NCBI GenBank assembly: GCA_030595795.1
Contig: JAUVCH010000004.1
Location: 4,502-68,501 of the forward strand
DNA: 64,000 bases
Direction: 5' to 3'
From: Gammaproteobacteria bacterium
GTDB lineage: Bacteria; Pseudomonadota; Gammaproteobacteria; GCA-001735895
This document shows, piece after piece, positions 29,558 to 56,339 of the stretch. Position 1 is the stretch's first letter. Every line of letters starts with the position of its first letter. A model generated the notes under the pieces. The model did not search any database. It saw nothing but the letters and a program-made list of their open reading frames with translations, and was not told where the DNA came from. Both the position numbers and the translations under genes were made by a program.

Positions 29558-29977
29558 TCAGGTTCCGACCCAATTTTCGATTACCAGACCACTCACACGA
29601 TCAAACTCTCTGGTATTGTTGGTGACCAGAGTCTTGCCAATAGCACGAGCGTGGGCGGCGATCCATAAGTCATTGTTACCAATCATTTGCCCTTTTACCG
29701 CCAGATCAGCACGGATATCCGCATAGTGCAAAGCCGTTTCGGTTTTCATTTCAAGCACTGGAATCAGTTGTATTAACTCATTCAACACACGTTTCGCTTT
29801 TTCCTGGCTATTGCTTCTGTTTGCACCATAAAGCATCTCACCATAAGTCACTACCGACATACCGACCTGACCAACCGCCAGAGTAGCAAATTTCTTTTCA
29901 ACCTGTGGTGGCTTCTGTTTGGCAATATAGATACAGATATTGGTATCAAGCATGAAGTCCATGTTTGCATAGTCCAT
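29558..29977 (-). CDS. vapC: VapC PIN-domain ribonuclease toxin
   Basis: MLDTNICIY… PIN N-terminus with the conserved acidic residues. The true start is probably the internal Met at about 29962. Confidence 0.85.
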   Translation of the reverse strand: MDYANMDFMLDTNICIYIAKQKPPQVEKKFATLAVGQVGMSVVTYGEMLYGANRSNSQEKAKRVLNELIQLIPVLEMKTETALHYADIRADLAVKGQMIGNNDLWIAAHARAIGKTLVTNNTREFDRVSGLVIENWVGT

Positions 29978-41927: not shown

Positions 41928-42500
41928 TTAAATTTGGATGAAATCGATGAATTGCTTCAATGCAGAAACGGTTTGGGGTAGTTGTTGCTTTTGAAGATTT
42001 GCTAAAAATTCTTCTTTCCCCATTGGTGGATACTTTAACGCTTCCCTCTGATTTTTTACCGCACTACAGGCTTTACCCGATGACAAGTCAATTTGATAGC
42101 AAATAAAATCGTCGGGGTGTATTACCTCTATTCCAAATTTAGACAAAATATCATCTGGGAAATCTTTTAAATTAAAAGTCACAATCGCATCGGCATTACA
42201 TTTAATAGCAGCTGCTACAACATGACGGTCATCAGGGTCTGGAAGCTCGAAAGTATTAATTAAATCTTCGTATCCCTGAACCTTAGCATCACGGACATTG
42301 GCATCCATCAAGTCGCGTATTCTCTCTAACTTTTCACGTTTAAATTTGTCTTTTCTTAATAATGCATTAATCCATTCTTCATGTATTTGATCTGTCCATT
42401 GGGCCTTAAATAAATCTGTTAATGCTAAACGCATCAACAGATCTCTTAACGGCGCAGGATATAAAACACAAGCATCATAGACAACAGAGAATTTTGACAC
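41928..42500 (-). CDS. PIN-domain protein, putative toxin, with about 60 aa of C-terminal extension
   Basis: …VVYDACVLYPAPLRDLLMRL… PIN N-terminal strand with acidic residues; overlaps the upstream HTH gene. Confidence 0.7.
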   Translation of the reverse strand: MSKFSVVYDACVLYPAPLRDLLMRLALTDLFKAQWTDQIHEEWINALLRKDKFKREKLERIRDLMDANVRDAKVQGYEDLINTFELPDPDDRHVVAAAIKCNADAIVTFNLKDFPDDILSKFGIEVIHPDDFICYQIDLSSGKACSAVKNQREALKYPPMGKEEFLANLQKQQLPQTVSALKQFIDFIQI

Positions 42501-42973
42501 TACTCATATCCCATGCCTAGTTTTTGGGACTCTACGGCGAGCTGATCTAATGTTGCCATTCTTTCAGTGTCTATTCGTTGTTTATAGTCAAAAACATTTT
42601 TAGCGAGTACCCTGCGGTGCGTGCCGACCTTGTGAAAATCTATTTCGCCTTTTTCAAGCAATCCAACAAGAAAAGGCCTACTAACATTTAAAATATTCGC
42701 AGCATCCTGAGTGCTCAATTCTGCATGTATAGGCATTATGCCTATGGCATTGCCTCGAGACATTTCTGATAAAACATCTAAGAGAAGTTGCAAAGCATGG
42801 CCTGGTAAAACTAATTCATCACTCTGATCATTACTTCCTTTAATACTTAAATGAACCCGATCTGCGTCAGCGTACTTTGATAAAGTCCTGCTTGAAAGCT
42901 TCGCCTCTTCTATCTCCTGGGCAGTTGGTATTTGAACAACGTTATTTGAAGATGACATGACTATTCCCCACAT
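42500..42973 (-). CDS. Excisionase/MerR-like HTH DNA-binding protein, putative antitoxin partner
   Basis: C-terminal helix-turn-helix (…LSTQDAANILNVSRPFLVGLLEKGEIDFHKVGTHRRV…); its stop and the PIN gene start share coordinate 42500. Confidence 0.65.
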   Translation of the reverse strand: MWGIVMSSSNNVVQIPTAQEIEEAKLSSRTLSKYADADRVHLSIKGSNDQSDELVLPGHALQLLLDVLSEMSRGNAIGIMPIHAELSTQDAANILNVSRPFLVGLLEKGEIDFHKVGTHRRVLAKNVFDYKQRIDTERMATLDQLAVESQKLGMGYE

Positions 42974-47688: not shown

Positions 47689-47829
47689 GGGCGGGGTCAT
47701 TGGAATATGGGCTTGCGTAAGCCTCTTCTAATAGTTGTTTTAGCGAGGCTTTGATGCTCCTTTTTTTACTTGCCATTGTATATACATTGTATATACTTAA
47801 ATGTATTCAATGTAGATCCGGTGATTGCG

Positions 47830-48096
47830 ATGCGAGTAAATAGTGAAATTAGTCAGTGGGGTAACGGTTTGGCTGTAAGGTTGAACCGATCGGTTATTGA
47901 CGCCGCCAACCTAACTAAAGGCTGTAAAGTGCAGATTGAGGTAGATAAAACAGGGGTTCATATTAGTCCGGTTAAGGCAAAGAAAACAAGGTTACGGCTC
48001 CCGCTCAGTGAGGCTTCATTGCTTGCTAAGATAACGCCTGAGCTGGCTCATGCTGACGAACTGGCCCAGCCTTTATCTGACGAAGTGGGCGACTAA
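47830..48096 (+). CDS. MazE/AbrB-family antitoxin
   Basis: MRVNSEISQWGNGLAVRL… swapped-hairpin fold N-terminus. The track ORF begins at 47770, but the internal Met is more likely. Confidence 0.7.
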   Translation: MRVNSEISQWGNGLAVRLNRSVIDAANLTKGCKVQIEVDKTGVHISPVKAKKTRLRLPLSEASLLAKITPELAHADELAQPLSDEVGD

Positions 48097-48461
48097 TGGC
48101 GTCAAAATATATCCCTGAGCGTAAGGATATTATCATGCTTGATTTTGAACCTACTAAAGGGAAAGAAATCGGTAAGTATCGTCCGGCTATAGTGTTGAGC
48201 AGTAAGTTCTACAACAAAAAAACAGGATTACTTATATGTTGCCCGATAAGCACTAGCATACGCGGAGGATCTACCGAAGTTCCGGTAAATAACATCGATC
48301 ATCCTTCCGTTGTTGCGGCAAGCCTGGTGCAAACCTTTTCCTGGGGTGCCAGAAAAGCCAAGAAGATAGCAATTGCTGAAGAGGGTGTTTTTGAAGCAGT
48401 ACTTTTACGCCTTCTCCCGTTGCTAGGCACGGAAGAAATATTAGACGAGTTAACTGAATAA
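48096..48461 (+). CDS. MazF/PemK-family endoribonuclease toxin
   Basis: …KYRPAIVLSS…LLICCPISTS… PemK core; ATGGCG overlaps the antitoxin stop. Confidence 0.8.
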   Translation: MASKYIPERKDIIMLDFEPTKGKEIGKYRPAIVLSSKFYNKKTGLLICCPISTSIRGGSTEVPVNNIDHPSVVAASLVQTFSWGARKAKKIAIAEEGVFEAVLLRLLPLLGTEEILDELTE

Positions 48462-48496
48462 GGACGTATTCTTTATGGAAAAAATCACAATGTATT

Positions 48497-48856
48497 CTAG
48501 GGGCACGTTTTGTTTTCTTCCTGCAGGTTTTCCCCACGCCGGGCAGGTGTGACCAGGGTTCTGTGTTTGCTATTTGGGGCGAATACGTCGTGAAAACGCG
48601 TCAGATTGACTCGCGGTTTCGGTACCAGTGAGGCCAGTTTCGATATGAAATCCAGCGGCTCAAAGATCACATGGGTCGTGCCGTCTCTGTAGGGTGTTTT
48701 GAGCTGGTAGCGGATGTTGCCTGCTGATGTTAACGAAAGTCGTTTTTCCGATATGGAAGGGCGTGATATGTAACGGCACAACCTTTCCAGTTTGTCGCGC
48801 TCCCAAGCCTGAGCGGGAGGTGTAGTGGCTTGAATTGGGCAATTTTGGTTACTCAT
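48497..48856 (-). mobile_element. C-terminal fragment of an IS91/ISCR-family (Y2 HUH) transposase; remnant
   Basis: …LCRYISRPSISEKRL…IRYQLKTPYRDGTTHVIFEPLDFISKLASLVPKPRVNLTRFHDVFAPNSK… parallels the conserved C-terminal block of ISCR/IS91 transposases (…ARYLSRPPLSNERL…VRFE.KDY…F…L…V.P……IRHYGLLAN…). Only about 119 aa remain; the catalytic core is absent. Confidence 0.5.
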
Positions 48857-50869: not shown

Positions 50870-51356
50870 GTGTTTTCCCGTAGATCTGGTCTACTAAATT
50901 TGGTCGGCTAAATTAGGTGATTTACTCACACAAAAGAGGACAGTTCAATAGTCCTCTTTGTATCTAAACAAGCTGCTCTAGAATAAAAAGGGTCAGATCA
51001 CGCTTTCCCCTGCATCTATTAAAAAATTGAATTGCTATATCAAAACCTCTTTCGAGAAAGGCTCATGAATTCGCTTGATAGGCATAACAATAAAATCCAC
51101 AAATATGTTTGGGTGAGTGAGCAACTCTTGTGTTTATAATAGTACGTTATTAGTGGTGATTTAATTTATCATATCGACAAGGAAACAGGGAATAGTTGAC
51201 ACAGATCAACAAGGGGTAATTAAAAATGACTATCGTGAACTCATTAGAGATATTTTAAAAAATACCAAAATTATGTAGTTTTAAATTTTATTTTAGGCCG
51301 CAACTTTGACCCATGTAATTTTAGGGTTTAGTAATTTTTTCTGGAGAACACTTTTA

Positions 51357-54242
51357 ATGAACGACTTCAACACTCGGCTGAGTTCACTATCGAGTAAAGC
51401 TATTATCGCATTACTGAGCGCAGGTCTCATTAGTGGGAACGGCATTGCTCAAGTACCCAATCCCGAACCCACCACTTACACCGATGTGTCAGTTCCTCAG
51501 CTGACAGGCTGGAATGATGCCAATATTGTTACTTTGGATGGCATGACTGGCGCCACGGAAAAGAGCCACATCTATGAATCTGCTGCGGCTATAGTCGACC
51601 CTACCAAGAGTAGTGTAGCGGCTGTATTCTGGGAATTGGACAATGGCAGTGGTCGTGCACCGGGTATACAGGTTGTCACCGACGACTTTGATGTCCCGAC
51701 TAACAACTGCATCATGGCCTCAGGCGAGCTTGAAAGTGTTGATTTCCCTGGCACCATCGTGCCCAAAACCTGTAGTGACCCACAGGGCAGCTCCAAGCGT
51801 TATTTTCTTGAGATGACCTCGAGTGACGTACCGATAGACATGGCGTTTGATCTCGGCGTCAAGGATATCCGCTACAAGGGTGTCAAGGATCCTGAAACCG
51901 ATGGTGGTGAGGCGCTGGCTGAGTTTAAAGCGACTTACGGCATCGGGCGTATCTATCGCGTGATCCAGAAGGTCATCAATAACACAGAGAAGCGTATTGC
52001 CAGCTACAAGTTTGAGCTGGGTACCGGTCTGGGAGATGCATTCCTGCCGCTGACTTTTGAGGAGCATGGTGTTGGCTTCGAGATGCTTCCTTTGGTGCCA
52101 CGCGAGTTCCTTGAGGGAGAAACCGGCGCGCCTGATATCGCTGTATGGGACTCACTACGCTTTGCGACGGTCTCGCCAAAAATGTTTGACGATGGATCCC
52201 GTGCACGATTTGATCCTGGATTTCTGGATCACAATGCTGCGGGCTTTCTGCCCCCACAGCTTCCAGCTGTTGGCGTCGAAAAGAGCCAGTATATCGACAG
52301 TGGCACGAGTATTGTCGACGGTATAATTGGCTCTATGACCCCCAATTATTTTAATATCGCCGATACTCAAGGTGTCTTACTGCCTGGTAACATACTGGGT
52401 TACCAGCTTTCCGATTCGCTGATACCGGAAGTCATTGGTGAATACAATACCAATGAGATTGGTGGCGAGTCAGATTCGATCGTTGCCATATGGGACGGTT
52501 CCGACTGGCGCTCTGGACGCGCTGGACTTGATGGATTACCTGGACTTGACGATCTCGACCCTGATGCGGCAGATAATTATGGAATTATTCCAGACGCTCA
52601 ATTAATACAATGGGCAGCCAAGCCGCTTGGTCTGGATCTTGATACCGATGACGAGACAGACCCAGACTTCGTTCGTTATGAGGTTATATTGAGTGATGAC
52701 CTATCTGGCCTGAATACCGATTTTTTCATCTATATCGGCGACAAGTTGCTGGATGATACCGGTGAGCTGATACTGGACTCTATCACTTTGCGTCTCACAG
52801 CAAATTCTGTTGAAGCGGTTATTGGTGATGTGCCCGGTAGCGAAGATCCGCCCTGGGGAAGTGATTTAGATGCTAGCAGAATAGACGCACCGACACTGGC
52901 CAGCTATATGCCGGTTACAGGCACGCCGATTGCCATCAACGACATTACTACCACTGTGGAAGATGACCCGTCTACCACTATTACTATTGATGTCCTGGAG
53001 AATGACCTGCTGGATGGTGCGGCAGTAGTTCCAGCCGACGGGTTTATTACGATTACAACACCTCCCGAAGACGGCATTGCTACTATCGTTGGCAATGAGA
53101 TCGAATACACTCCGGATGCAGATTTCGTCGGTACCGATTTCATTAGCTATACTTATACGCTAACCGCGGGTGCGGTCGTCTCCAATATCGCAACCATCAA
53201 GATAATTGTGGAGGCGGCACCGATACCGGATCAACCGTTGGCCGTTAACGACTCCGCTACTACGTTCAAAGACATACCGGTAACCCTCGATGTGCTGGTC
53301 AATGATGAACTGTACAACGATGCCCCCAACACAGTGGTGGTCAGCATCAATAATGATGCCCTGAACGGTGTTGCAAGTGTGGCGGGCGACAACACCATCG
53401 TCTATACCCCGGGTGCAGACTTTGTTGGTTTCGAACGCTTCACCTACGTTGTAACAGTGGATGGCATAGTTTCGAACTCTGCTCTGGTCACGATTAAAGT
53501 TGATTCTTTTGGTATTCCGGATGCAATCAACGACATTACTGTCACCCTTGAAAATGACCCGGTTACCATTGATGTCCTGGAGAATGACGTGCTGGAAGGT
53601 GTGCCAGTAATTCCAGCAGACGGGTTTATTACCATTACAAAAGCTCCCCAAAACGGCAGTGCTGCTGTCGTTGACCAAAAGGTCGAATACACTCCGGATG
53701 CGGGTTTTACCGGTACCGACTTAATTAGCTATACGTATACACTAACGGCGACTGGAGATGTATCCAATACCGCAATCGTCACAATCATTGTGGATGCGGC
53801 ACCGATACCGGATCAACCGTTGGCAATTAACGACTCTACCACTACGTTCAAGAACACAGCGGTAACACTCGATGTGCTGGACAATGATGAACTGAACAAC
53901 GATGCCCCCAGCACAGTGGTGGTCAGCATTAATAATGCCGCCCTGAACGGTGTTGCACGCGTGGAGGATGACAACACTATTATCTATACCCCGGGAATAG
54001 AATTTGTTGGTATCGAACGCTTCACCTACGTTGTAACAGTAGATGGCATAATTTCGAGCTCTGCGCTGGTCACGATCAGAGTTGATGAGCCTGTTGTTGT
54101 GGTACCGGTTGCTACTGGTGGTAGTGGTAGATGTTCGCTCTCCTACAATCCGGACGGTAAAATCGATCCCCTGCTGCCCGGTATAGTCCTTGTCAGTCTG
54201 ATTTACCTGGGATGGAGATCAAGGAAAAATGATGCCAGGTGA
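51357..54242 (+). CDS. Large secreted cadherin-like/Ig-like tandem-repeat surface protein with an N-terminal FMN-attachment-type motif (DGMTGAT) and a C-terminal sorting-signal-like tail
   Basis: I take the start as the internal ATG at 51357 (SD GGAG, then a Sec signal …IIALLSAGLISGNGIAQ); the track ORF runs from 51306. Four C-terminal ~100-aa repeats show the …DVLxNDxxxG…YTPxxxFxGxDxFTYxV… pattern. The tail reads …TGGSGRCSLSYNPDGKIDPLLPGIVLVSLIYLGWRSRKNDAR. Confidence 0.8.
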   Translation: MNDFNTRLSSLSSKAIIALLSAGLISGNGIAQVPNPEPTTYTDVSVPQLTGWNDANIVTLDGMTGATEKSHIYESAAAIVDPTKSSVAAVFWELDNGSGRAPGIQVVTDDFDVPTNNCIMASGELESVDFPGTIVPKTCSDPQGSSKRYFLEMTSSDVPIDMAFDLGVKDIRYKGVKDPETDGGEALAEFKATYGIGRIYRVIQKVINNTEKRIASYKFELGTGLGDAFLPLTFEEHGVGFEMLPLVPREFLEGETGAPDIAVWDSLRFATVSPKMFDDGSRARFDPGFLDHNAAGFLPPQLPAVGVEKSQYIDSGTSIVDGIIGSMTPNYFNIADTQGVLLPGNILGYQLSDSLIPEVIGEYNTNEIGGESDSIVAIWDGSDWRSGRAGLDGLPGLDDLDPDAADNYGIIPDAQLIQWAAKPLGLDLDTDDETDPDFVRYEVILSDDLSGLNTDFFIYIGDKLLDDTGELILDSITLRLTANSVEAVIGDVPGSEDPPWGSDLDASRIDAPTLASYMPVTGTPIAINDITTTVEDDPSTTITIDVLENDLLDGAAVVPADGFITITTPPEDGIATIVGNEIEYTPDADFVGTDFISYTYTLTAGAVVSNIATIKIIVEAAPIPDQPLAVNDSATTFKDIPVTLDVLVNDELYNDAPNTVVVSINNDALNGVASVAGDNTIVYTPGADFVGFERFTYVVTVDGIVSNSALVTIKVDSFGIPDAINDITVTLENDPVTIDVLENDVLEGVPVIPADGFITITKAPQNGSAAVVDQKVEYTPDAGFTGTDLISYTYTLTATGDVSNTAIVTIIVDAAPIPDQPLAINDSTTTFKNTAVTLDVLDNDELNNDAPSTVVVSINNAALNGVARVEDDNTIIYTPGIEFVGIERFTYVVTVDGIISSSALVTIRVDEPVVVVPVATGGSGRCSLSYNPDGKIDPLLPGIVLVSLIYLGWRSRKNDAR
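52920..54100 (+). repeat. Intragenic tandem (A-B)x2 duplication of two ~300-bp units encoding cadherin-like domains
   Basis: A1 (~52920-53215), B1 (~53215-53515), A2 (~53515-53800) and B2 (~53800-54100). Identical stretches such as gcggcaccgataccggatcaaccgttggc appear at ~53213 and ~53799. Confidence 0.8.
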
Positions 54243-54265
54243 GTAAACACTAATAGTTCAATGTT

Positions 54266-54299
54266 AAAAACCCCTCTCTTGTCGAGGGGTTTTTGTTTT
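54266..54299 (+). terminator. Rho-independent terminator between the repeat protein and the CPBP protease gene
   Basis: AAAAA-CCCCTC-tcttgtc-GAGGGG-TTTTTGTTTT. Confidence 0.65.
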
Positions 54300-54306
54300 A
54301 ATAAGC

Positions 54307-54858
54307 ATGATGACGAAACAATTTGAGCCTAACAAGCATGTCTGCGGCCCATTCCAGAGACTCTTCGTAATGAACTTGCTGCGCGAAATCGGTTTAAAAC
54401 ACAAAGCAGGGTGTTATTTCAATTACCGTTTTGTGCTGACAATCCTGGCAGGCATATTAGCAGTCTGGGTGATACATGGTTGGGTGCAGCCTTACCCATC
54501 ACATGTTGAATTTAACTGGCTGCAGTTACTATCGCTGATTGTCTGGCAGCCGCTGCTTGAAGAAGTGCTGTTTCGCGGCATTATTCAAGGACAGCTTGCC
54601 AAATATGAATGGGGTAAACGCTCGCGGTTGAATATCAGCAGTGCTAATGCCGCAACGTCAGTATTGTTTGTTGCGATGCATATGGTTAACACTTTGCCAT
54701 TGTATGCACTGACTATATTTGCACCTTCGCTGGTTTTAGGTTATTTCCGTGACTACTGCGACAGTATTTACCCATGTATTGTTATTCATGGCACCTTCAA
54801 TGCGATGATTTTTGCGGGATTAATTTTAAACGGCAATATGAATTTACCAACAATGTGA
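54307..54858 (+). CDS. CPBP-family (CAAX protease-like) intramembrane glutamic/metallo-protease
   Basis: All three CPBP motifs are present: EEVLFRG (EExxxR), FVAMH (FxxxH) and HGTFN (HxxxN), on a multi-TM 183-aa protein. Confidence 0.8.
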   Translation: MMTKQFEPNKHVCGPFQRLFVMNLLREIGLKHKAGCYFNYRFVLTILAGILAVWVIHGWVQPYPSHVEFNWLQLLSLIVWQPLLEEVLFRGIIQGQLAKYEWGKRSRLNISSANAATSVLFVAMHMVNTLPLYALTIFAPSLVLGYFRDYCDSIYPCIVIHGTFNAMIFAGLILNGNMNLPTM

Positions 54859-55352: not shown

Positions 55353-56339
55353 ATGACAAGAATCATAAATTGGATTAACAAACTGATCATTGGTGTGTTA
55401 CTCGCCGCCCCAGCATTATCGAATGCCGACCCAATTCACGAAGCAGCAGAAAGTGGTGATGTTGATCAGATTTTGAAACTGCTCGACGGTGGGGCCGACG
55501 TTAACGCTCCAGACCTTGACGGGACACCTCTTCAATGGGCATTATTTTCCAACCAAATAGAAGTTGCTCGACTTCTTCTAAAGCGTGGTGCAAATCCAAA
55601 TGTTAAAGGGTGGGATGGAACGCTACTGGAATCGGCCGCGCTTAACGGTAAAACCGAGATTGCCAAAGTTCTTCTTAAACATGGTGCTAATCCTAATAGC
55701 GGAGATCGCTCCACACCTTTAATCCGGGCCGTGCAAAAGGGAAGTTTAGAAATCATCGCGTTACTTCTCACTCAGGATGCCGATCCTAGCTTGGCCACTC
55801 CTGACGGAACCACTCCCTTACACGAAGCCGCCCATGGAGGTAAATTGGAGATCGCAAAGCGATTAGTTGATAGTGGGGCCGATGTTAACGCACTCAATGG
55901 AATAGGTAGGCCAGCCATCCATTTCGCTGTTGAAAAGAACCACTCCATTTTGGCTGCTTATCTAAAGAAACATGGTGCAACACCAGGTAAGATCGCTTCC
56001 ATTACAGACCTACTCGCCTCCGCTGACGCAGCACAAGGAAAGACGTTAGCCGAGAAGCAGCTTTGTGTTGATTGCCATATCGTGGACAAGTATGGCCCAC
56101 CCTTATGGAATGTAGTGGGCCGTAAAAAGGGTAGTGTCAATGATTATTCTTATTCCCCACCATTTGAGGCTTTAAAGGGCAAATGGTCCTTTGAAGCACT
56201 CAACGTATTCCTGGCTCGTCCTACCGAAGTCGTACCTGGCACAAAGATGAACTTCCGTGGTATTTCGGACCCACAAATGAAAGCTGAGGTAATCGTTTAT
56301 CTACGATCTTTAAGTGACGATCCAGTACCACTTCCGTAG
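55353..56339 (+). CDS. Periplasmic ankyrin-repeat protein fused to a C-terminal class I cytochrome c (c2-like) domain
   Basis: Sec signal (…LLAAPALSNA), about five ANK repeats (…TPL..A…G…V..LL..GA..N…), then CVDCH heme-binding and a …PGTKMNF… Met-ligand motif, with the cytochrome c2 pattern GPPLWNVVGRKKGS…YS…. Confidence 0.8.
   Translation: MTRIINWINKLIIGVLLAAPALSNADPIHEAAESGDVDQILKLLDGGADVNAPDLDGTPLQWALFSNQIEVARLLLKRGANPNVKGWDGTLLESAALNGKTEIAKVLLKHGANPNSGDRSTPLIRAVQKGSLEIIALLLTQDADPSLATPDGTTPLHEAAHGGKLEIAKRLVDSGADVNALNGIGRPAIHFAVEKNHSILAAYLKKHGATPGKIASITDLLASADAAQGKTLAEKQLCVDCHIVDKYGPPLWNVVGRKKGSVNDYSYSPPFEALKGKWSFEALNVFLARPTEVVPGTKMNFRGISDPQMKAEVIVYLRSLSDDPVPLP

Follow-up and report, generated by a model that had tools for sequence, protein, structure and literature searches.

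A probable JDVT-CTERM/MrtJ sorting cassette, composed of one adhesin client and a dedicated intramembrane protease, in a gammaproteobacterium

The JDVT-CTERM/MrtJ system, in which a tagged client is followed by a small CPBP protease, occurs in Gammaproteobacteria and has been described in two reports (Haft 2023, bioRxiv 10.1101/2023.06.07.544157; Guo, Haft and Wall 2025, PMC11980579). Haft reported a two-gene neighbourhood of tag and protease with adjacency in 16 of 17 cases, characterized the tag as having 'always one Cys' and occurring 'typically once per proteome', and gave WP_006748948.1 of Thioalkalivibrio paradoxus as the reference MrtJ (bioRxiv 10.1101/2023.06.07.544157). The MYXO-CTERM/MrtX system of Myxococcus xanthus likewise combines a Cys-containing tripartite tag with a protease built on a CPBP core. 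Cleavage of MYXO-CTERM by MrtX has been shown both in M. xanthus and in E. coli and requires Cys residues, and Rce1 and MmRce1 require prenylated Cys (PMC11980579). The GlyGly-CTERM/rhombosortase and PEP-CTERM/exosortase systems also place a tripartite C-terminal signal on secreted surface proteins, with other signature motifs and other enzyme families.

The window, the whole 64-kb stretch of DNA analysed here, likely contains a JDVT-CTERM/MrtJ sorting cassette with one client and a dedicated intramembrane protease, for which a sorting mechanism is proposed below. As in the described system, the tagged client precedes a small CPBP protease, and its tag combines a Gly/Ser-rich signature containing a single Cys, a Leu-rich helix headed by Asp-Pro, and a basic end. 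The T. paradoxus ARh 1 genome, which Haft used for phylogenetic profiling, encodes a homolog of the passenger (P0189). The features of the locus are as follows.

51357..54242 (stop codon included), + strand: substrate gene, encoding a secreted repeat adhesin of 961 aa (choice-of-anchor F / Big_9) that ends in a JDVT-CTERM tag
51357..51449, + strand: N-terminal signal peptide MNDFNTRLSSLSSKAIIALLSAGLISGNGIA, aa 1-31, read from the sequence
51618..52799, + strand: choice-of-anchor F domain, aa 88-481 (NF033657)
52956..54086, + strand: four Big_9 / cadherin-like Ig domains (Pfam Big_9, Cadherin_5, Cadherin_4)
54117..54239, + strand: JDVT-CTERM sorting tag, aa 921-961 (NF033191 and an independent tag HMM)
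54132-54134, + strand: codon of Cys926 in the GGSGRC signature that opens the tag
54165-54170, + strand: Asp-Pro of the tag (D937, P938), preceding the transmembrane helix
54171-54215, + strand: transmembrane helix of the tag, LLPGIVLVSLIYLGW, aa 939-953, 15 hydrophobic residues
54216-54239, + strand: basic cluster RSRKNDAR, the last residues of the adhesin
54265..54299, + strand: intrinsic-terminator-like hairpin with a 12-bp stem and a T-run, between the substrate gene and mrtJ
54307..54858, + strand: mrtJ, 183 aa, CPBP glutamic-type intramembrane protease of the JDVT-CTERM system
54559-54576, + strand: EEVLFR motif of MrtJ (EExxxR), aa 85-90
54667-54681, + strand: FVAMH motif of MrtJ (FxxxH), aa 121-125
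54787-54801, + strand: HGTFN motif of MrtJ (HxxxN), aa 161-165

The substrate open reading frame runs on the forward strand from 51306 or 51357 to 54242, and its product ends in VATGGSGRCSLSYNPDGKIDPLLPGIVLVSLIYLGWRSRKNDAR before the stop codon. We prefer the ATG at 51357 over the TTG at 51306 as the start; a GGAG is located at 51343-51346, 10 nt 5' of the ATG. The exact protein is already held in NCBI (P0078, 100% identity, also 961 aa). Direct reading of the signal peptide gave a basic n-region, a hydrophobic core at aa 11-30, and a c-region of small residues, and cleavage would be expected after GIA. The choice_anch_F model of NCBIfam (NF033657, cut-off 50 bits) matched the protein at 210 bits (5.8e-62) over profile positions 1-307 of 307, and Pfam Big_9 matched four stretches at 139 bits. 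The Ig domains form a two-domain module duplicated in tandem (aa 534-716 and aa 731-910), the two modules being identical at 131 of 183 positions (72%). Two cysteines, C118 and C139, are located in the N-terminal domain, and the last 800 residues hold Cys926 alone.

The original prediction had described the tail as a small motif, a helix of about 15 residues, and RSRKNDAR, an architecture that was borne out at the extreme C-terminus, where the Cys-containing GGSGRC, the Asp-Pro, LLPGIVLVSLIYLGW (mean Kyte-Doolittle hydropathy 2.07), and RSRKNDAR before the stop could each be located. Cys926 is the only Cys within the tag, matching the single Cys of the JDVT-CTERM description. The further statement that the tail matches none of the known sorting signals exactly was not supported, since the 49-aa tail scanned alone scored 29.2 bits against the JDVT-CTERM model NF033191, above the cut-off of 27 bits, but 23.7 bits, below the cut-off, in the full-length protein. 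With close relatives at 31.7-39.1 bits and canonical tails at 41.5-54.1 bits, the window tag differs from the described ones in being at the margin of the curated cut-off. JDVT-CTERM, whose enzyme is encoded by the adjacent gene, was the sole match when the tail was run against sorting-signal HMMs; the PEP-CTERM, GlyGly-CTERM, and MYXO-CTERM models gave no match at E<=10. An independent tag HMM was built from 12 tails from other genomes with the window tail left out, and in a search of 5015 ORF tails it detected that of the window adhesin at 52.8 bits (E = 4.5e-15), a match that exceeds chance. The same tag type is present in the relatives L081, L082, and L090-L095. A scan for further carriers of the tag and for exosortase or rhombosortase genes, which the original prediction had suggested, returned the one tagged ORF in the 64-kb window, no second one being found by the independent HMM; the window ORFs that were scanned included neither an exosortase nor a rhombosortase gene.

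The downstream gene starts 64 nt 3' of the substrate gene. Its product matched NF033192, the NCBIfam equivalog model for MrtJ with a cut-off of 75 bits, at 104.9 bits (E = 2.8e-30) over profile positions 1-97 of 98, and was far under the cut-offs of the MrtP, MrtC, MrtX, MrtS, and MroQ models, scoring 29.5 bits against the MrtX cut-off of 180. It has a CPBP/Rce1 membrane fold, a match to the Pfam Rce1-like family at 68.7 bits, and all three motifs that had been predicted for a CPBP protease. The residues E85, E86, R90, F121, and H125 do not vary among 57 homologs; H161 and N165 are likewise constant in a 16-sequence alignment and kept in at least 90% of the 57 homologs. MrtJ would be a minimal CPBP glutamic protease of five helices, with E85, E86, R90, H125, H161, and N165 as its catalytic residues. 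It differs from MrtX, a housekeeping enzyme that serves about 35 non-adjacent clients and carries an additional large domain at its N-terminus. When PDB sequences were searched by profile with the window protease, no match was returned, and identity to the type II CAAX prenyl protease Rce1/MmRce1 (PDB 4CAD) was 13%. MmRce1 has eight helices as against about five in MrtJ, and the substrate of Rce1 is a cytoplasmic C-terminal CAAX tetrapeptide, in contrast to the transmembrane tag on an exported protein seen here. The suggestion of an undescribed variant was not upheld, because the protease passes the MrtJ equivalog model and the system had already been reported by Haft and by Guo and colleagues. 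Judged by sequence, the pair reads as an ordinary example of the described JDVT-CTERM/MrtJ system, neither bespoke nor undescribed.

A mechanism for the window cassette can be proposed by taking it from the tested MYXO-CTERM/MrtX system; in the JDVT-CTERM/MrtJ system the cleavage site, Cys lipidation, and export route would thus follow by analogy. The 961-aa adhesin would first be exported by Sec via its N-terminal signal peptide, as read from the sequence. The tag helix would then anchor the protein in the inner membrane, leaving RSRKNDAR on the cytoplasmic side, as expected from the positive-inside rule. The side chain of Cys926 may be modified, probably by a lipid, as the literature hypothesizes for JDVT-CTERM. 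MrtJ would recognise the Cys...Asp-Pro signature and the helix within the membrane and cut the tag near the Cys, an activity deduced from its homology to MrtX, whose Cys-dependent cleavage of MYXO-CTERM has been demonstrated experimentally. On the model of MYXO-CTERM, the mature adhesin may then reach the cell surface and stay attached there; the 64-kb window contains no type II secretion genes. Finally, the conserved terminator hairpin that separates the genes would probably hold expression of the protease well under that of the substrate. This hairpin (54265..54299) has a dG of -16.7 kcal/mol (z = -5.0), and none of 200 shuffled sequences was equally stable. Four relatives keep it, with a single compensatory change of a T:A pair to A:T, and a similar hairpin is located 3' of the substrate gene in L083. 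Because a terminator separates the genes, co-transcription of the substrate and mrtJ is not required.

The chemistry at the Cys could differ within the same cassette, either because no lipidation precedes cleavage or because the Cys forms a thioether or disulfide to an envelope component. We consider this unlikely. It would agree with the literature, in which no Cys-modifying enzyme has been identified for any Cys-containing tag system, and with the genes flanking the cassette, which encode ApbE and an ankyrin/cytochrome c protein and among which no candidate Cys transferase was found. These points are countered by the dependence of Rce1 and MmRce1 on prenylated Cys and of MrtX cleavage on Cys residues; as to lipid and non-lipid options at the Cys, no feature of the sequence distinguishes between them.

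Still less probable is a permanent inner-membrane anchor, in which the tail would remain uncleaved and the CPBP protein would be otherwise employed or would act as a non-catalytic partner, as with SpdC in Staphylococcus. Against this reading, the catalytic Glu-Glu, Arg, and first His are invariant in the 57 homologs, with the second His and the Asn at 90% or more, and MrtX, the closest tested homolog, actively cleaves an analogous tag. In addition, tag and protease also occur with passengers unrelated to the adhesin, namely a Calx-beta protein (L082) and proteins with no Pfam match (L083 and L088), and the retention of the Cys and Asp-Pro in the tags of unrelated passengers points to a recognised signal and away from a plain anchor.

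The association of tag and protease was followed across genomes, as the original prediction had proposed. A tagged ORF was present beside the protease at 11 of 11 MrtJ-like loci in species-representative genomes, compared with 0 of 69 control loci of other CPBP proteins (best E 0.24). In the reverse search, with the tag alone as the query in metagenomes, MrtJ was found at all 13 assessable loci. Among the assessable loci a window-type protease was never seen without a tagged neighbour, which speaks against an ordinary housekeeping copy, one of two outcomes that had been named as refuting the prediction; the other, a tail match to a system with its enzyme encoded elsewhere, did not occur either. 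These results demonstrate a two-way link between tag and protease and, together with the MrtJ score, uphold the predicted pairing of a substrate with a dedicated sorting protease of the JDVT-CTERM type. A coincidental adjacency, in which the CPBP gene would be a housekeeping or Abi-type bacteriocin-immunity copy and the tail would be served by a distant exosortase, rhombosortase, or myxosortase, is therefore extremely improbable: CPBP genes are very common, the view of this genome is 64 kb, and related tails give weaker secondary MYXO-CTERM matches, up to 27.6 bits in two-Cys relatives, but the window tail matched JDVT-CTERM alone, the protease scored best against MrtJ, the window ORFs scanned held no exosortase or rhombosortase gene, and the locus counts run the other way. 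The exosortase, rhombosortase, MYXO-CTERM, and Abi-immunity readings were accordingly rejected on model scores and adjacency counts.

The passenger family is not uniform at its C-terminus. In 120 passenger homologs, the ends were of the JDVT type in 85, GlyGly-like in 3, GCGC MYXO-like in 3, and ..F.D[RG]FE in 19, and untagged termini are also present among choice-of-anchor F homologs. In L112, a genome of the BD1-7 clade, a 160-aa Rce1-like gene comes after the gene of a homologous tagged adhesin. Genes of about 900 aa convergent with mrtJ in L083, L085, and L088 were considered as further clients and rejected, their products being lipoprotein-like and carrying no tag. At the window cassette itself, the GC profile showed no compositional island (0.44-0.51 against a window mean of 0.48), and Rfam and tRNA scans of the window gave no matches. 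The value of the locus lies mainly in correct annotation, as it adds one more clean MrtJ/JDVT-CTERM pair. MrtJ cassettes are minimal, pairing a small protease with a single adjacent client or a few of them, and as handy experimental models they could address what modifies the invariant Cys and where a CPBP protease cuts.

The sole peculiarity of the window cassette is the spacing within its tag. The Asp-Pro, near-invariant in the JDVT-CTERM family, is at +11 from Cys926, compared with nine in the family description, owing to two extra residues, Leu-Ser, after Cys-Ser. The Cys-to-Asp spacing among the 85 tagged passenger homologs was 9 in 48, 10 in 29, and 11 in 5; since all three occur, nine is the commonest value but not a fixed requirement, and the 11 of the window is at the long end of a natural range of 9-11. 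The +11 form adjoined MrtJ at each of the 13 assessable metagenome loci. Close relatives of the window depart further from the JDVT-CTERM description, in that a second Cys (GCSC...) is present in some of their tags and a single mrtJ may be flanked by two or three tagged genes. It is doubtful that the long-spacer tags of this gammaproteobacterial clade, with +11 spacing, in some cases GCSC..., and sometimes opposite a canonical +9 tag at the same mrtJ, form a functionally distinct JDVT-CTERM subclass. If they did, cleavage or modification at another position would be one option, and a different final location, with one MrtJ sorting two clients differently, would be another. For annotation, the curated tag model can miss long-spacer tags in full-length proteins, as the 23.7 bits of the window protein illustrate. 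As the locus shows, a gap of 9-11 residues from the Cys to the Asp-Pro is tolerated by the tag.

The plus-strand ORF that ends at 54242, its C-terminus reading ...VATGGSGRCSLSYNPDGKIDPLLPGIVLVSLIYLGWRSRKNDAR*, likely starts at 51357, where a GGAG precedes the ATG by 10 nt. This start gives 961 aa, the length of the identical NCBI protein P0078, and the N-terminus, MNDFNTRLSSLSSKAIIALLSAGLISGNGIA, resembles a Sec signal peptide in sequence and hydropathy. The next plus-strand ORF encodes a 183-aa protein with a Pfam Rce1-like match (68.7 bits). ORF ends, motifs and this match agree with the original prediction of a sorting-signal-like tail followed directly by a CPBP protease.

Features of the cassette
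51357..54242 (+), adhesin, 961 aa
adhesin aa 88-481, choice-of-anchor F domain (NCBIfam, 210 bits)
adhesin, after the choice-of-anchor F domain, four Big_9/cadherin-like Ig domains (Pfam)
52956-54086 (+), adhesin aa 534-716 and 731-910, 72% identical to each other
adhesin aa 921-961, C-terminal tag
54265-54299 (+), terminator-like 12-bp hairpin and T-run in the 64-nt intergenic region
54307-54858 (+), protease gene mrtJ, with EEVLFR at aa 85-90, FVAMH at 121-125 and HGTFN at 161-165 of the product

The two-domain Big_9 module of the adhesin has recently been duplicated in tandem. Absence of this duplication from most homologs explains their length of 740-800 aa, ~190 aa less than that of the adhesin.

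The protease scored 104.9 bits against NF033192, the curated NCBIfam equivalog for the JDVT-CTERM system glutamic-type intramembrane protease MrtJ (cut-off 75 bits), and fell far below cut-off with all other NCBIfam myxosortase-type/CPBP models (MrtP, MrtC, MrtS, MrtX, MroQ). E85, E86, R90, F121 and H125 were invariant among 57 homologs, while H161 and N165 showed no variation in a 16-sequence alignment and were retained by at least 90% of the 57. The locus is therefore not the undescribed variant that had been considered, since its protease belongs to a known family: it is the JDVT-CTERM/MrtJ pair, its client being a choice-of-anchor F protein. The tail had also been said to match none of the PEP-CTERM, GlyGly-CTERM and MYXO-CTERM type signals exactly. 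None of these models matched the 49-aa tail in NCBIfam at E-values up to 10; the single family matched was JDVT-CTERM (NF033191, cut-off 27 bits), which scored 29.2 bits on the tail alone and 23.7 bits within the full-length protein. Because this score was marginal, a tag HMM was built from 12 tails adjoining MrtJ-like genes in other genomes, with the window tail excluded. In a search of 80 loci and the window, 5015 ORF tails in all, the window tail reached 52.8 bits (E = 4.5e-15). With the same HMM, tagged ORFs were detected in all 11 MrtJ-like loci (L001-L011) and in none of 69 loci with other CPBP proteins (best E 0.24), and no second tagged ORF was found in the 64-kb window.

An ordinary housekeeping protease, present at syntenic positions without the adhesin, would make the adjacency coincidental. 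The closest relatives of the window protease, 54-95% identical and from metagenomes and MAGs, had a tagged ORF beside them wherever the contig permits (L081-L084, L086-L089). Conversely, when metagenomes were scanned from the tag alone, using aligned long-spacer tags, in which Asp-Pro lies at +11 from the Cys, 19 loci had an ORF ending in such a tag; 13 also had MrtJ, and in the remaining six the contig breaks off on the side expected to hold the protease. Since the linkage holds from both sides, the housekeeping explanation fails, and the reading as a substrate/sorting-protease cassette, which the NF033192 match likewise supports, was right.

JDVT-CTERM was described as having a single invariant Cys, followed nine residues later by a near-invariant Asp-Pro (Haft 2023, bioRxiv 10.1101/2023.06.07.544157), whereas in the window tag two additional residues after Cys-Ser place the Asp-Pro at +11 (CS-LS-YNPDGKIDP versus CSYNPNGRFDP). 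Its closest relatives share this spacing (GCSLSYNPDGKIDPLLPGIVL..). The spacing was 9 in 48, 10 in 29 and 11 in 5 of 85 tagged passenger homologs, so +11 is the long end of the natural range. Isolated long-spacer tails scored 31.7-39.1 bits against NF033191, and canonical (+9) tails 41.5-54.1 bits. Two loci, L001 and L087, carry one long-spacer and one canonical tag on either side of the same mrtJ, suggesting that a single MrtJ probably handles both. The tag was published as having "always one Cys" and occurring "typically once per proteome" (Haft 2023). In related loci (L001, L083, L084, L086-L089, L096-L109), rather than in the window, there were small departures: some tags contain a second Cys (GCSC...), and a single mrtJ can be flanked by two or three tagged genes, which in L089 form a tandem of three.

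The tag behaves like an exchangeable module. Nearly identical tags and proteases accompany unrelated passengers, including a Calx-beta protein (L082) and proteins without a Pfam match (L083, L088), and homologs of the window passenger bear differing ends.

C-terminal ends of 120 passenger homologs
JDVT-type tag, 85
..F.D[RG]FE end without a helix, 19
GlyGly-like end (Alcanivorax), 3
GCGC MYXO-like end, 3
other or truncated end, 10

These homologs belong to Thioalkalivibrio, among them T. paradoxus ARh 1, on whose genome the definition of MrtJ was based, and to Vibrio, Marinobacter, Alcanivorax, Wenzhouxiangella and the BD1-7 clade; in one genome of this clade, a 160-aa Rce1-like gene directly follows the homolog. 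The conserved ...(I/L)F.D(R/G)FE end, which lacks a transmembrane helix, was observed in the 19 choice-of-anchor F homologs, whose source taxa include Wenzhouxiangella (P0123-P0136, P0142, P0152, P0154, P0156, P0171, P0172, P0190, P0196). It could represent a further C-terminal signal, or the gene call may stop short of the true end of the protein.

By analogy with the homologous MYXO-CTERM/MrtX system, Sec would export the adhesin, the tag helix would hold it in the inner membrane, some enzyme would modify Cys926, MrtJ would cut near the Cys within the membrane, and the mature adhesin would be passed to the cell surface. Experiments in M. xanthus and E. coli demonstrated that cleavage in that system depends on MrtX and on Cys, and type II secretion plays a part there (Guo, Haft and Wall 2025, PMC11980579). 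No exosortase, rhombosortase or type II secretion genes were found among the scanned window ORFs. The intergenic hairpin (dG -16.7 kcal/mol, z = -5.0) recurs in four relatives, with one base pair changed in a compensatory manner from T:A to A:T, and L083 has a similar hairpin 3' of its substrate gene. This conserved terminator-like element suggests that substrate and protease differ in expression. No clear Shine-Dalgarno sequence was read at the mrtJ start, and production of MrtJ presumably stays far below that of its client.

The window is an unremarkable stretch of gammaproteobacterial chromosome (argH, a LytTR two-component pair, hemCDXY; lysA-dapF-xerC; hslVU; ubiE/J/B; argS; hrpA), with no compositional anomaly at the cassette. 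In the closest sediment relatives (L083, L084, L086-L088), mrtJ cassettes lie amid multihaem cytochrome, MtrB/PioB-like, rhodanese and sulfur-transport genes, a neighbourhood unlike that of the window, indicating that the cassette moves between genomic contexts. Directly 3' of mrtJ, 55353-56339 (+) encodes a 328-aa protein with ankyrin repeats (Pfam Ank, 124 bits) and a C-terminal cytochrome c domain (Pfam Cytochrom_C, 22.6 bits; NCBIfam CycA-like, 45 bits), a combination that is unusual in bacteria. A degraded mobile element has left a scar at 47770-48856, 2.5-3.5 kb upstream of the cassette, where a MazF toxin (95.9 bits), accompanied by a small ORF upstream of it, adjoins a 118-aa ISCR/Y2-type transposase fragment on the opposite strand, followed by ~1 kb without ORFs of at least 100 aa. 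At 6129-7342 (+), a 185-aa pesticin-like lysozyme domain protein (159 bits) and an overlapping 219-aa ORF without a Pfam match may form a toxin/immunity pair. Two PIN-domain proteins are encoded at 29558-29977 (-) and 41928-42973 (-); a 156-aa HTH protein is encoded immediately upstream of the second, suggesting a toxin-antitoxin module.
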